The notes below the pieces were generated by a model that saw nothing but the letters and a program-made list of their open reading frames with translations, ran no database searches and was not told the DNA's origin. Source: Candidatus Oxydemutator sp. (GTDB lineage: Bacteria > Pseudomonadota > Gammaproteobacteria > Poriferisulfidales > Oxydemutatoraceae). From it: DNA of 64,000 nucleotides. Shown here piece by piece: positions 54,453 to 59,487 of the stretch; within the stretch, counting starts at the first letter, position 1; each line of letters starts with the position of its first letter. The stretch is taken from NCBI GenBank assembly GCA_965203445.1, contig OZ241883.1, positions 192,001 through 256,000 of the forward strand, read 5' to 3'. Position numbers and translations under genes: made by a program.

Positions 54453-55562
54453 TCATTGACGCCGGACGTCGAAATACGCCTCCTCCGAGATCCGGTTCCA
54501 GCCGCCGACGCCCGCCAGAAACTCGCGGTAGGAAGCATAGGTGCGCCGCGCCAGATCGTTGGCGCCCGCGACCTCCTCGACCACCTCGGCGGACAACTCG
54601 CGGAAACGCGCGAGCACGTCGGCGGGAAACGCGCGCAGGTGCACGCCGTGCTCGTCGCGCAGCACCCGCAACGCGCCGAAATTGCGCGCCGTGTAATCTG
54701 CCAGCATGTCCTGGTTGGCGGCCTCGCAGGCGCGGCGCACGACCGCGCGCAAGTCCGGCGGCAACTGGTCGAACGCGGCGCGGTTGACGAAGCACTCTAT
54801 CGTCGTGCCCGGCTCGTGCCATCCGGGGTAGTAGTAGTACCTGGCGACCTTGTGCAAGCCGAACGCCAGGTCGTTGTACGGGTTGGTCCATTCGGTCGCG
54901 TCTATGGCCCCGGTCTGCATGGCCGTGAACAACTCGCCGCCCGGCAGCGCCACGGCGACGCCGCCGGCGCGCTCCAACACTTTGCCGCCGAGACCCGGGA
55001 TGCGCATCTTGAGCCCCCTGAGGTCGGCGACGCCGTTGATCTCGCGGTTGAACCACCCGCCCATCTGCATGCCCGAATTGCCGGCCGGCAACGGCATCAG
55101 ACCGAACGGCGCGTACGCCTCCCGCCACAGTTCGAGGCCGCCGCCCTTGTAGAGCCACGCGTTCATCTCCAGCGCGTTCATGCCGAAAGGCACGGTCGAG
55201 AAGAAATTGAACGCCGGGTCTTTCCCCTGCCAGTAATAGGCGCTGGCGTGCCCCATCTGCGCGACGCCGCCACGCACCGCGTCGAACGCCTCGAACGCCG
55301 GCACCAGTTCGCCGGCGCCATAGACCTTGACTTCCATCCTGCCGCCCGAGGTGCGCGAGATCAGCCGCGCCAGGTGCTCGGCGCCGGTGCCGAGACCGGG
55401 AAAATTCTTCGGCCACGCCGTGACCATCTTCCAACGGACGGTCTCGGGCGCGGGCGCGACCACGGCCGTGTCTGGTTGCCGCTGCTCGCGCTCGCAGCCG
55501 GCAAGCGGCGCGCCGAGCAACGCGCCGGCGGCGGCGCGGTGAAGGAATTGTCGTCGTTTCAC
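54453..55562 (-). CDS. TRAP substrate-binding protein (DctP/TakP family) with Tat-like signal
   Basis: MKRRQFL, WKMVTAWP, QMGGWF, KMRIPGLG, YYYPGWHEPG. Confidence 0.92.
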   Translation of the reverse strand: MKRRQFLHRAAAGALLGAPLAGCEREQRQPDTAVVAPAPETVRWKMVTAWPKNFPGLGTGAEHLARLISRTSGGRMEVKVYGAGELVPAFEAFDAVRGGVAQMGHASAYYWQGKDPAFNFFSTVPFGMNALEMNAWLYKGGGLELWREAYAPFGLMPLPAGNSGMQMGGWFNREINGVADLRGLKMRIPGLGGKVLERAGGVAVALPGGELFTAMQTGAIDATEWTNPYNDLAFGLHKVARYYYYPGWHEPGTTIECFVNRAAFDQLPPDLRAVVRRACEAANQDMLADYTARNFGALRVLRDEHGVHLRAFPADVLARFRELSAEVVEEVAGANDLARRTYASYREFLAGVGGWNRISEEAYFDVRRQ

Positions 55563-55601
55563 GGGGTGCTCCTATGGGGAGAAACTACCGGTGATTATAT
55601 A

Positions 55602-56387
55602 GGGAATTATGTATCAAAATCTACAGAATGATTGTGAAGTAATTGAATTCGCATAGGAATATGACATGATGTCTGGTGATGAAAGTTCATAGGACAATTC
55701 GATAATGTATCGTATGCCGAATACGGCAAGGCATGAGCGGCGCGTCAAGCATTATCAGAGGATGATGGCGAGGCGTCAGGGGCCGAACCGCAAGAAGGGG
55801 ATCAAGGCGTCGAACCGATGGCTACGCGCACGGTTGCTTCACCAAAGAGCGCAGGCCACGTTGCGCCATGCCAGACGGAATTGGTGTCATGGCGTATCGA
55901 GGGAAGTGGCCGACGGGTATTCTCTGGTTCATTTGGAGAAGTGGAACAATCGGGGCATGACAAGAAGCGCCCAGGGCACGAAGGAAAATCCTGGAACGAA
56001 AGTCCGTGCGAAGGCCGGACTGAACCGAGCGATCCTGGCGTCATGCTGGGGCAAGTTTCACCAGTGTCTGGATTATAAGACGAATACGAACTACGTAGAT
56101 CCTGCATATACGAGTCAGACGTGCAACAAGTGCAGGCACGTGGACAAAAAGAATCGGAAGACGCAGTCGGTATTTATTTGTACCGATTGCGGTTATCGGG
56201 ATAATGCGGATGCGAATGCCGCATTGAACATATTGGCCTCCGGGAATGGGGCTGCTGGGCGTGATAAAACCAGAGGGGAGACTCATCCGGTGGAACGTCA
56301 AACGGGTATCAACAACCTACAGAATCTGGAGCACGACCGGCACAACGGTTCCCGCGCCAAGTCTGTAGATTTTGATACATAATTCCC
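55602..56387. mobile_element. non-autonomous TIR element (IS1595-like ends) carrying truncated tnpB
   Basis: Perfect inverted repeat GGGAATTATGTATCAAAATCTACAGA at 55602-55627 and 56362-56387 (30 bp with flanking TATA); lower GC than neighbours; no transposase. Confidence 0.85.
55679..56382 (+). pseudogene. tnpB: TnpB-family RNA-guided nuclease, internally deleted
   Basis: ORF 55705-56382: ASNRW, RuvC-II LE, AKAGLNRAIL..CWGKF, VDPAYTSQTC..C, CxxCG...NADANAALNI; RuvC-I and REC absent; stub MKVHRTIR* at 55679. Confidence 0.85.
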
Positions 56388-56565
56388 TATAATAAGCTCC
56401 ATGCGTCCCGTCGGACACACGACCTGAGAAAGAGTCAATGACCATCGAGCCACCGTCGCTTTCGTCATTCGTCGGCCAAATGCTACCTTTGGTCGGCGCG
56501 CGGGCCATGCCTGATCGAAGCGCACGTATAACCCGGTTTTCTGCAACGATTAACCGGAGAATACA

Positions 56566-57270
56566 ATGACGGAAAAACACAACGAAGCAGTGCGGGAAGC
56601 CTTGCCGCAAGAGATCGAATGGGGGGCACCCATTACGCGAGGCGAGCACAAACGGAGCTCGGACGAACTTGAAAAGAAGTTCGTCGGGCTGCATGGCGAG
56701 CTCAGGGGAGACATAAAGGACCTGCGCGTCGAACTCATCGCGAGCATCGCCAGACTCGACAAAGACATCGTCAACTTGCGCGCCGAACTCAAACAGGACA
56801 GCGCCAACTTGCGCGCCAAACTCAAAGAGGAATTCGGCGAGCAACACGCCAAACTCAAAGAGGATTCCGATAAGCGATACGCCGAACTCATGGCGCACAT
56901 CGCCAGACTCGACAAGGACATAGTCCGCTTGCGCGCCGAACTCATAGAGGAAATCGGCAAGCAACTCGCCAAACTCAAAGAGGATTCCGATAAGCGATAC
57001 GCCGAACTCAAAGAGGATTCCGATAAGCGATACGCCGAACTCAAAGAGGATTCCGATAAGCGATACGCCGAACTCATGGCGCACATCGCCAGACTCGACA
57101 AGGACATCGTCCACTTGCGCGCCGAACTCATGGAGGAAATCGGCAAGCGCCACGACGAACTCAAAGACTATATCGCCAAATCCCAAATCAGGATGCTTCT
57201 GGCCACCACCGCTATCTTTGCCGGCGTAGCCGGCAGCATGTTGGCCAGTATATTGGCCATAGTTCGCTGA
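56566..57270 (+). CDS. repeat-rich coiled-coil protein with C-terminal TM anchor
   Basis: PITRGE, repeats AELKEDSDKRY and IARLDKDIVxLRAEL, C-terminal hydrophobic helix; GGAGA RBS. Confidence 0.75.
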   Translation: MTEKHNEAVREALPQEIEWGAPITRGEHKRSSDELEKKFVGLHGELRGDIKDLRVELIASIARLDKDIVNLRAELKQDSANLRAKLKEEFGEQHAKLKEDSDKRYAELMAHIARLDKDIVRLRAELIEEIGKQLAKLKEDSDKRYAELKEDSDKRYAELKEDSDKRYAELMAHIARLDKDIVHLRAELMEEIGKRHDELKDYIAKSQIRMLLATTAIFAGVAGSMLASILAIVR

Positions 57271-57285
57271 CGGATAGGCGTCCGC

Positions 57286-59487
57286 TCAGACGACTTTCAG
57301 GTCGGCGAGCATCAGTATCAGCCACTTGGTGCCGGCGCGCTCGAACTTGACCTGGGCGCGGGCGTGGTCGCCGGCGCCTTCGCAGGCGATGACGACGCCC
57401 GTGCCGAAAGTCTTGTGCTCGACCGACTGGCCGGGGCGGATACCCGACGCGCGCGCCGGCGCGGCGCCACGGGTGCGCGGCGGGCGCGTGACGTGCAGGC
57501 GCGGGCGCACTTCCTCGATCAGTTCCCTCGGGATTTCGCCGAGAAAGCGCGAGGGTTCGTTGATCGTGGTCGCGCCGTAGCCGCGGTTGCGGGTCTCGGC
57601 GAAGGACATCGCCAACTCCTCCCTGGCGCGCGTGATGCCGACGTAGCACAGGCGGCGCTCCTCCTCGAGGTCGGTCTCGTTTGCCGATGCGCGCTCGTGT
57701 GGAAACAGGCCCTCCTCAAGCCCGACGATGACGACCGACGGAAACTCCAGGCCCTTGGCCGAATGCAGCGTCATCAGCTGCACGCAGTCCTGATCGGCGC
57801 GGCCCTGTCCCTCGCCCGCCTCGAGCGCGGCGTGCGCGAGGAACGCATCCACGACGGCCAGCTCCTCGTCACCTTCGTCGCGCCACGCGCGCTCGTAGTC
57901 GCGCGCAGCAGCCGTGAACTCCTCGAGGTTCTCGACGCTGGACAACGCCGCCTCGCTCTTGTCCTTGCGGTAATGCGCGGTCAGCAGCTCGGCGACGCGC
58001 GCGGCCATCTCCGGCAGCGACGGGGGCGCGCCATCGCCAGCCAGGTTTTCCAGCAAATCGTAAAAACCGCGCAGTGCGTTGGCGGCGCGCGCCGCGAGTT
58101 CCTTGCCCTTGAGCAGTTCGATCCCGGCGTCCCACAGGCTGCATTTGCGCGCACCCGCACACGCGCGGATTTCGCCGAGCGTGCGCTCACCGATGCCGCG
58201 CGGCGGGAAGTTGACGACGCGCTCGAACGACGGATCGTCGCGCCGGTTCATCATCAGGCGCAGGTAGGCGAGCGCGTTCTTGACCACGGCGCGCTCGAAG
58301 AAACGCAGACCGCCGTAGATGCGGTACGGAAGGTCCTCGGCGATCAGCGCGCTTTCGATGACGCGCGACTGCGCGTTGGAACGGTAGAGCACCGCGATCT
58401 CATCGTAGCGCCGCTCGCGCCCGGCCCAGGCGCGGACGCGGTCGACGACGAAGGCCGCCTCCTCGCGCTCGTTGAACGCGGCGAACACGACAATCGAGGC
58501 GCCGGCGTCGCCGTCGGTCCACAGCGACTTGCCCAGGCGCCCGCGGTTGTGATCAATCAGCGCGTTGGCGGCGTCGAGTATGGTCGCGGTCGAGCGGTAA
58601 TTGCGCTCCAGGCGAAAGGTGGCGGCGCGCGGAAAATCCTTGACGAAGTTGCGGACGTTTTCGACGCGCGCGCCGCGCCAGCCGTAGATGGACTGGTCGT
58701 CGTCGCCGACCGCGAACACCGGAATCTCGTCGCCGGCGAGCACCCGGATCAGCGCGTACTGGAGCTTGTTGGTGTCCTGGAATTCATCCACCAGGAGGTG
58801 GCGAAAGCGCGCGCGGTAGTGGCGCAGCAGGTCGGCGTTGTCGCGCAGCAGTTCGAGCGCGCACAGCAGCAGTTCGGCGAAGTCCACCAGGCCCAGGCGC
58901 CGGCAGTCCCGCTCGTAGGCGGTGTAGACGCGCAGCAGTTGCACGAGGTTCGCGTCGTCACCGGGTTCCTGCACCGACGACGCGCGCATGCCCCTCTCCT
59001 TGCAGTCGTTGATGAACCACTGCGTCCGGCGCGCCGGCCAATGCGCCTCGTCCAGACCGAGCGCCTGCGTCACGCGCTTGATCAGGCGGCGCTGATCCTG
59101 CGCGTCGAGCACCTGGAAAGTGCGCGGCAGCCCGGCGTCGCCGTGGTGCAGGCGCAAAAAGCGGTGGCACAATCCGTGAAAGGTGCCGAGCCACATGCCC
59201 GAGACCGGATAATCGAGCAGGCTTTCGACGCGCGCGCGCATTTCCTGCGCCGCCTTGTTGGTGAAGGTCACCGCGACGATGCTGTACGGCGACAGGTTCT
59301 CGCTACGGCACAGCCACGCGATGCGGTGCGTCAGCACGCGCGTCTTGCCGCTGCCGGCACCGGCCAGCACCAGCACCGGCAGCGGGGCACTGGTGACCGC
59401 GACGCGCTGCTCGTCGTTCAGCCGCCGCAACAAGTCTTGCGCGTCGGACGCCCGCGCGTCGCCGAACCGCTCTTCGCCGATCAGCAT
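57286..59487 (-). CDS. uvrD: DNA helicase II
   Basis: LAGAGSGKT, TFTNKAA, VDEFQDTN, VGDDDQSIYGWRGA, MTLHSAKGLEF, EEERRLCYVGITRA. Confidence 0.96.
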   Translation of the reverse strand: MLIGEERFGDARASDAQDLLRRLNDEQRVAVTSAPLPVLVLAGAGSGKTRVLTHRIAWLCRSENLSPYSIVAVTFTNKAAQEMRARVESLLDYPVSGMWLGTFHGLCHRFLRLHHGDAGLPRTFQVLDAQDQRRLIKRVTQALGLDEAHWPARRTQWFINDCKERGMRASSVQEPGDDANLVQLLRVYTAYERDCRRLGLVDFAELLLCALELLRDNADLLRHYRARFRHLLVDEFQDTNKLQYALIRVLAGDEIPVFAVGDDDQSIYGWRGARVENVRNFVKDFPRAATFRLERNYRSTATILDAANALIDHNRGRLGKSLWTDGDAGASIVVFAAFNEREEAAFVVDRVRAWAGRERRYDEIAVLYRSNAQSRVIESALIAEDLPYRIYGGLRFFERAVVKNALAYLRLMMNRRDDPSFERVVNFPPRGIGERTLGEIRACAGARKCSLWDAGIELLKGKELAARAANALRGFYDLLENLAGDGAPPSLPEMAARVAELLTAHYRKDKSEAALSSVENLEEFTAAARDYERAWRDEGDEELAVVDAFLAHAALEAGEGQGRADQDCVQLMTLHSAKGLEFPSVVIVGLEEGLFPHERASANETDLEEERRLCYVGITRAREELAMSFAETRNRGYGATTINEPSRFLGEIPRELIEEVRPRLHVTRPPRTRGAAPARASGIRPGQSVEHKTFGTGVVIACEGAGDHARAQVKFERAGTKWLILMLADLKVV

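Follow-up and report, generated by a model that had tools for sequence, protein, structure and literature searches.

Associations of the RNA-guided nuclease TnpB with DDE transposons have been described by Altae-Tran et al. (2023, PNAS, PMC10691335), whose relevant passages distinguish six DDE-associated branches, DDE-1 to DDE-6, all with inverted terminal repeats, and place the 3′ end of TnpB no more than 250 bp away from the end of the element. Solo TnpBs, the ends of which are nearly identical to those of transposase-bearing elements, are presumed in the same passages to have moved in trans. IS630 is the only partner named in the main-text passages of that paper, and in its supplementary information IS1595 appears only in the list of profiles for mobility comparison. 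A review from 2026 (PMC13565253) names, in its part on this subject, ISL2, IS630, and IS1031 as TnpB partners, considers such associations rare in prokaryotes and speculates on the reasons. In eukaryotes, Fanzor1 and some Fanzor2 reside in cut-and-paste transposons, and passages of Yoon et al. (2023, NAR, PMC10711439) report that terminal inverted repeat (TIR) and target-site duplication (TSD) are part of the guide-RNA scaffold. Here, a stretch of 64,000 nucleotides from the gammaproteobacterium Candidatus Oxydemutator sp. (contig OZ241883.1, positions 192,001 to 256,000; “the window” in the following) was analyzed, in which positions 55602-56387 are very probably a decayed member of a non-autonomous transposon family, whose elements carry only tnpB between TIRs of the IS1595 family of DDE elements.

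Within the IS1595 family, elements with passenger genes (“transporter IS”), transposase-less derivatives, and miniature inverted-repeat elements (MITEs) have reportedly been described by Siguier, Gagnevin and Chandler in 2009. A literature search found no paper on an IS1595-TnpB element, although Fig. 4 and Additional Files 10-11 of PMC10691335 may name one. The general association was already published in 2023; the present family adds IS1595 as a partner, and the likely helper is found in the same genome. All positions are window coordinates unless marked “genome,” which refers to the organism’s own genome, a closed single contig of 2,378,814 bases that is 100% complete.

The window element and its full-length siblings

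A repeat search recovered an inverted repeat of 30 nt (55598-55627 / 56362-56391), 100% complementary and with arms 734 nt apart, the next best inverted repeat of the 3-kb region having 21 nt and 90% complementarity. Comparison with 13 sibling elements restricts the TIR proper to the inner 26 nt (55602-55627 / 56362-56387), GGGAATTATGTATCAAAATCTACAGA, and assigns the outer 4 nt (TATA, a palindrome) to the flank; the element at 55602-56387 measures 786 bp. Its GC content is 0.445-0.585, compared with 0.66-0.74 in the 2.5 kb upstream, whereas low values (0.52-0.58) continue over the 0.9 kb downstream. The original prediction, made from the letters of the DNA, had named the same arms as a perfect 30-bp repeat, a lower-GC element, and a tnpB stop codon inside the right TIR; all of this holds, with the TIR shortened to 26 nt. 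The parts of the element and its left flank are:

55594-55601, no strand: left flank ATTATATA, presumed left copy of an 8-bp target duplication, preceded by GTG (55591-55593); read from the sequence
55602-55627, plus strand: left 26-nt TIR; repeat search and sibling comparison
55679-55705, plus strand: 5′ remnant of tnpB, ATG plus seven codons (MKVHRTIR) followed by TAA; DNA alignment with full-length copies and sequence reading
55705-56382, plus strand: truncated tnpB open reading frame (ORF) of 225 aa, with the RuvC-II Glu, the CxxC..CxxC zinc finger and the RuvC-III Asp kept and the N-terminal half including the RuvC-I Asp gone
56234-56387, plus strand: predicted guide-RNA-like (omega RNA) scaffold, overlapping the 3′ end of the ORF and ending at the last base of the element; conserved structure
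56362-56387, minus strand: right 26-nt TIR, holding the tnpB stop codon TAA at 56380-56382; repeat search and sibling comparison

With the element as query, 39 matches are obtained in the own genome, and tblastn with a full-length copy identifies 13 full-length tnpB genes besides the window fragment and three other fragments. The 13 full-length units, an intact example being that at genome 174463-175774, are 1252-1377 bp long, encode an intact TnpB of 400-430 aa, and all possess TIRs beginning with GGGAAYTAYAT. Their 8-bp target duplications are perfect in eight of the 13 copies, match at 7/8 in two, at 6/8 in another two, and at 4/8 in one. Two copies at different genome sites are 99.93% identical over 1371 nt and the family has therefore moved recently. 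The 13 intact TnpB elements fall into about ten diverged subfamilies; the other subfamilies are 76-86% identical to one another at the nucleotide level and have the outer 13 nt of the TIR in common, while the inner part of the TIR differs. The full-length copy at genome 1233732-1235101 carries at both of its ends exactly the TIR sequence that forms the left end of the window element. A search for full-length copies with intact tnpB and/or a DDE transposase had been suggested as a check, and both exist in this genome, namely the 13 copies and one IS1595-family transposase; a TIR occurring elsewhere only in the absence of tnpB would have spoken against the original interpretation, and the opposite was encountered, as the TIR recurs with full-length tnpB in all 13 copies.

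According to a protein alignment, the sibling proteins keep the RuvC-I Asp (GIDRN), the RuvC-II Glu (HLE), the RuvC-III Asp (RDNAD), and the CxxC..CxxC finger, and one full-length sibling protein scores 200.5 bits on the NCBIfam model guided_TnpB NF040570 (cut-off 100). The distance between the stop codon and the end of the element is 5-38 nt in those copies for which it was determined. Neither the window element nor any of the 13 full-length siblings encodes a DDE_Tnp_IS1595 transposase, TnpB being their sole product. Because the transposase is not encoded in them, the TnpB elements are non-autonomous relatives of the IS1595 family and, strictly speaking, do not belong to it.

In the window copy, the sole sizeable sense ORF (55705-56382, 225 aa) matches Cas12f1-like_TNB of Pfam with an E-value of 3.5e-16 and OrfB_IS605 weakly. 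Its alignment with two full-length copies contains a single internal gap of 562 columns, the left 100 nt including the tnpB start being retained and the deletion junction lying at about 55699-55702. The deleted segment of about 560 bp comprises the WED/REC domains and RuvC-I, and a protein alignment with 11 full-length copies places the GIDRN motif in it, so that of the TnpB hallmarks only the TNB domain, the Glu, and the third Asp are left in the window ORF. Because the N-terminal domains and RuvC-I are deleted, the window copy presumably cannot make an active nuclease and appears to be a relic. Thus, tnpB is the only cargo as originally proposed, although as a C-terminal half and not as a whole gene, and the proposed deletion derivative is borne out by the gap relative to the full-length copies, the parent already having been transposase-less and tnpB-only.

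Some further remains of the family were observed. The stop codon of the 5′ remnant overlaps the ATG of the 225-aa ORF (TAATG, 55703-55707) and the fragment could still be translated via re-initiation. A solo left end on the minus strand at genome 2003425-2003520 (L010:1500-1596) is 98% identical to the left end of the window element, breaks off no more than about 3 nt away from the window deletion junction, and abuts the start codon of a 268-aa host ORF; this may reflect a breakpoint common to both or the borrowing of a promoter or ribosome-binding site. Two miniature derivatives with the same TIRs and without an intact duplication measure 163 bp (genome 113341-113503) and 180 bp (genome 757576-757755), the latter keeping the first 32 tnpB codons. 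Further GGGAATTATATAC-type termini without tnpB nearby occur at genome 2033910, 2035928, 68723, 1550554, and others, one pair of them facing inward about 2 kb apart, and may represent cassettes with other cargo or solo ends that belong to this IS1595-type family.

The resident IS1595 element and relatives in other genomes

The Pfam model of IS1595 transposases, PF12762, has exactly one match in the own genome (2.9e-44). This resident transposase scores 205.7 bits on NF033547 (cut-off 75), contains the Pfam domains DDE_Tnp_IS1595 and Zn_ribbon_IS1595, and has annotated plasmid homologues, up to about 44% identical, that are named IS1595 family transposase. It has 307 aa (genome 1979910-1980830, minus strand) and is encoded in a DDE element of 2616 bp (genome 1978350-1980965; L021:1-2463) with a perfect 26-nt TIR, GGGAATTATATACTTAAATCTACAAA, and a perfect 8-bp duplication, and directly downstream of the transposase gene a passenger of 449 aa is encoded, an N6/N4 DNA methyltransferase fused to an HNH nuclease. 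Three TnpB ends agree with the TIR of this DDE element at 24/26 positions and the window copy at 21/26, four full-length copies and the window copy together covering the range of 21-24/26, and over the outer 13 nt the agreement is 11-13/13 in all ends compared. Searches for Y1 transposases (PF01797) and serine recombinases (PF00239) gave no match for either model in the own closed genome, whereas control genomes were matched. With neither kind found there, the DDE enzyme is the only candidate mobilizer with matching ends, and it probably moves the TnpB elements in trans. As to subgroup, the ISNwi1 group has the end consensus ggnnatTAT, and the present ends may fit it as originally proposed.

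A scan with one genome per species found 65 loci, mostly in metagenome-assembled genomes of Gammaproteobacteria, with TnpBs 43-61% identical to the query, whereby these and the following counts stem from related genomes, are not independent, and are descriptive only. Weaker matches to cyanobacterial TnpBs, regarded as the nearest relatives of IS605 type, have 23-35% identity. Close TnpB homologues in other genomes bear the same ends as the family in the own genome. When 45 full-length loci were examined for anchored ends, 16 had perfect 8-bp duplications, eight matched at 6-7/8, six at fewer positions, and 15 had no anchored ends; counted as unique insertion sites across genomes, 28 of 48 have a perfect duplication. 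A metagenome scan yielded another 10 loci, three of them with perfect duplications. In a set of 41 relatives, including the own genome, the TnpB clade is present in 17, and all 17 also have PF12762, compared with eight of the 24 relatives lacking the clade. Among five genomes with such loci that were checked, PF12762 was found in four, each time away from the tnpB loci and next to a GGGAATTAT- or GGGATTTAT-type end, the fifth being G041.

Two peculiarities were seen among the relatives. The loci L033, L034, and L035 of genome G041 have variant ends, GGGGCTTATATAC, and the internal partner of the terminal helix described below has changed along with the end. At L069:3501-5267, the tnpB match spans 1767 nt instead of the usual 1190 nt or so, suggesting an insertion inside the gene.

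Predicted guide RNA, flanking bases, and competing explanations

For an alignment of the right ends of 26 elements, which are strongly conserved at the nucleotide level, RNAalifold predicts four helices. Helix 1 is formed by an internal GGGAAU and the AUUCCC with which the right TIR terminates; helix 2 joins GACGU with GCGUC; helix 3 is a stem of seven pairs; and in helix 4, a terminal hairpin, the inner part of the right TIR supplies the 3′ arm. Covariation in helices 1-3 was assessed in a MAFFT alignment of 20 sequences that had not been fitted to the structure. In it, 96.4% of the cells are paired, compared with 21-56% when partners are slid, and changes on both sides are seen in 7 of 18 pairs, a count reached by 4 of 500 shuffles. 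Five of the seven pairs of helix 3 have changed on both sides, and helix 1 contains two independent compensatory changes, in one of which the right TIR has changed and the left TIR has not, the partner change being synonymous in an Asn codon. The terminal hairpin seems specific to the right end, since 19 of 36 right ends contain a stem of at least seven pairs with a loop of at most 8 nt, compared with 6 of 36 mirrored left ends and with 5.6 of 36 as the expectation from shuffles. The free energy of right ends differs only weakly from that of mononucleotide shuffles (-10.8 vs. -8.8 kcal/mol). No guide-RNA family was found with Rfam (E-value mode, four loci), the hits being tRNAs and chance matches only.

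The scaffold so defined measures 106-153 nt and extends to the final base of the element. We infer from these patterns that the last 106-153 nt of each element may be transcribed as a guide-RNA scaffold that incorporates the right TIR, and as it ends at the last base, the guide would begin with the 8-bp duplication. In the scaffold of the window copy, the terminal hairpin has a loop of about 38 nt, compared with 3-5 nt in the full-length copies.

When base counts were made around the duplication, with tnpB setting the orientation of each insertion, position -1, just 5′ of the left duplication, was a purine in all 28 unique insertions with perfect duplications (G in 20, A in 8), in 11 of 12 with duplications at 6-7/8, and in the three metagenome insertions that were fetched afterwards. 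The chance of 31 purines in 31 insertions at even odds is 4.7e-10. Position -3 is a purine in 25 of 28 insertions and again in 3 of 3 from metagenomes, and position -2 is a T in 15 of 28. At the mirror position +1, only 8 of 28 insertions have a pyrimidine, and the duplication itself has a symmetric AT-rich pattern. The left flank of the window copy, GTG followed by ATTATATA, fits the purine pattern. A one-sided bias is expected from the target-adjacent motif (TAM) of a TnpB and not from a symmetric transpososome; therefore, the purine-rich bases 5′ of the duplication are read as TAM-like and might constitute the TAM of this TnpB.

It is quite possible, if short of probable, that the nuclease is wired to the DDE transposon in such a way that the right TIR forms the last two scaffold helices, the duplication starts the guide, the TAM is R-N-R (often ATG or GTG), and only the empty allele is cut. 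In this mechanism, the IS1595 DDE transposase would move a tnpB element in trans and the right flank, beginning with the 8-bp duplication, would serve as guide next to a scaffold that includes the right TIR. TnpB with this guide would cut an unoccupied allele, recognizing as TAM the purine-rich bases just 5′ of the duplication, which in such an allele stand immediately before duplication and right flank, the putative target as a whole, and the occupied site would be spared because the element ends in ...TTCCC, the opposite of the purine bias. Repair of the break from the occupied copy would restore or spread the element.

Several observations weigh against the explanation as a whole, from the IS1595-type family to the homing, or against parts of it, besides the non-independence of the related genomes. 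Within 3.5 kb of tnpB, an IS1595 transposase gene was found at none of the 65 loci. As no unit contains both tnpB and the DDE gene, the capture event is therefore one that we infer and not one that is observed; the original prediction that a DDE transposon family has captured TnpB is supported in substance by the shared TIRs and 8-bp duplications and lacks a unit with both genes (0 of 65), and the idea as such is not new, being contained in the passages on DDE-associated branches in PMC10691335. In the 3-Mb genome G041, PF12762 has no match at 1e-5, although three copies with ends GGGGCTTAT have perfect duplications, and G030 and G036 contain PF12762 as DDE fragments only. Apart from the ends that agree best, the TIRs of other subfamilies match that of the DDE element at 15-20 of 26 positions, most sharing only the outer 13 nt. 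The window copy is devoid of an intact 8-bp duplication, its right flank (56388-56395, TATAATAA) matching the left flank at 3/8 positions in register; if 4 bp had been lost next to the right TIR, the lack of a duplication and the lengthening of the repeat to 30 nt would both be accounted for. A looser hairpin test that admitted G-U pairs and set no limit to the loop is not discriminating (mean longest stem 7.39 in right ends, 7.06 in mirrored left ends, and 6.83 in shuffles), and the purine bias could come from an asymmetric transpososome.

Other explanations of the element differ in how well they accommodate these data. An ordinary IS200/IS605 element (IS1341-type, tnpB-only) or IS607 element with an incidental inverted repeat is hardly credible: tnpB-only elements are common in the IS200/IS605 family according to part of the 2026 review (PMC13565253), and TnpB scores 143 and 88 bits on the IS200/IS605-type and IS607-type TnpB models, though below both cut-offs; however, the same part of the review has both groups without TIRs or target duplications, whereas here TIRs are present in 13 of 13 copies and perfect 8-bp duplications in eight, and with PF01797 and PF00239 at zero matches no Y1 or serine transposase is at hand, all of which contradicts this reading. 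It is equally hard to believe in a one-off nested event that placed a tnpB fragment inside an unrelated MITE. The short TIR-only derivatives of 163 and 180 bp and the half gene in the window would suit such an event, but apart from one gap the window copy can be aligned with full-length copies over its whole length, including the tnpB start region by the left TIR, and the architecture recurs in 13 copies of the own genome and in other genomes, which contradicts a single accident. Transposons with TIRs that are moved by another agent, i.e., an unrecognized transposase, a visiting transposase borne by a plasmid or phage, or TnpB itself, are unlikely. The G041 copies and the many subfamilies with a match restricted to the outer 13 nt would be accounted for, but the combination of 8-bp duplications with a TIR 24/26 identical to that of an intact IS1595 element in the same genome, together with PF12762 in 17 of 17 relatives that have the TnpB clade, points to the IS1595 enzyme.

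A more serious contender, if still a somewhat doubtful one, concerns one step only, namely that the purine bias is a target preference of an asymmetric transposase, the inner left and right ends being different, and that there is neither a TAM nor a role of TnpB in homing. The single DDE element, with G at -1 and C at +1, is symmetric in this respect, and passages of PMC13565253 argue that cut-and-paste DDE elements gain little from homing. The duplication is, however, symmetric and AT-rich while the bias at -1 and -3 is one-sided (28 of 28 purines at -1 against 8 of 28 pyrimidines at +1), the CCC with which the element itself ends is contrary to the bias, as self-avoidance would demand, and tnpB has stayed intact in 13 copies whose nucleotide identity has fallen to 76-86%.

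Surroundings of the window copy and comparison with known systems

The relic lies between two genes:

54453-55562, minus strand: gene for a TRAP-type solute-binding protein of the DctP family; Pfam PF03480, 5.9e-56
56566-57270, plus strand: gene for a repeat-rich coiled-coil protein without a clear Pfam family; repeat, ORF, and Pfam analysis

The latter gene contains 33-nt-phased direct repeats, with seven copies of a 168-nt unit at 60-100% identity, and has a low GC content like the TnpB relic. An empty-site allele between dctP and this gene had been suggested as a check, and none was obtained in exact form. Three genomes of the same genus match dctP to about 55566 and continue with unrelated sequence. 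In G010, which belongs to another genus, dctP and uvrD are about 28 bp apart; therefore, all of 55563-57285 (1.7 kb, the relic plus the coiled-coil gene) is extra here. An exact empty site for the 786-bp element is thus found neither among the same-genus genomes nor in G010, which lacks the whole 1.7 kb. Contigs from four sequencing runs cover 54800-57300 in fragmented pieces only, none bridging an empty site, and are silent on mobility either way; one of these contigs stops at the left element boundary.

The window copy itself is an ordinary relic and the interest lies in the family. IS1595 is added to the DDE families seen with TnpB, which supports the view that nuclease and guide form a module transplantable between transposon types, as with Fanzor in eukaryotes. 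If the proposed reading is true, one IS1595 element and 13 TnpB satellites would constitute a natural helper and satellite system in one closed genome, and the family would be the first worked-out case of restorative homing that serves a bacterial cut-and-paste DDE element. The family bears on the benefit that TnpB could bring to a transposon whose movement causes a double-strand break and duplicates the target. With an intact IS1595 helper, 13 intact TnpB satellites, a candidate scaffold, and a concrete TAM prediction, this genome is a compact test system.

With IS1595 elements that reportedly carry passengers, the family has in common TIRs, 8-bp duplications, passenger genes, and non-autonomous copies said to be moved in trans; it differs from what is told of them in that its cargo is an RNA-guided nuclease and that the predicted scaffold absorbs the right TIR. 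Like the IS1341 group of IS200/IS605, it has tnpB as sole gene and a predicted scaffold that shares sequence with the 3′ end of tnpB and extends to the right boundary. Unlike that group, it possesses TIRs and 8-bp duplications in place of subterminal hairpins without duplication, and no Y1 transposase was found in its genome. As in the DDE-associated branches outlined in PMC10691335, TnpB is located between TIRs shared with a DDE transposon and has its 3′ end within 250 bp of the element end. In contrast to the transposase-bearing TnpBs of those branches, as far as that paper’s passages describe them, tnpB and the DDE gene are never in one unit here. The closest functional parallel seems to be provided by the Fanzor elements as presented in parts of PMC10711439, which likewise are non-autonomous units with TIR and TSD that encode the nuclease only, although the present elements are bacterial and their TnpB is of ordinary size (about 410 aa). 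Whereas the Fanzor scaffold of that account includes the short TSD, the scaffold predicted here would end at the element boundary and the 8-bp duplication would start the guide.

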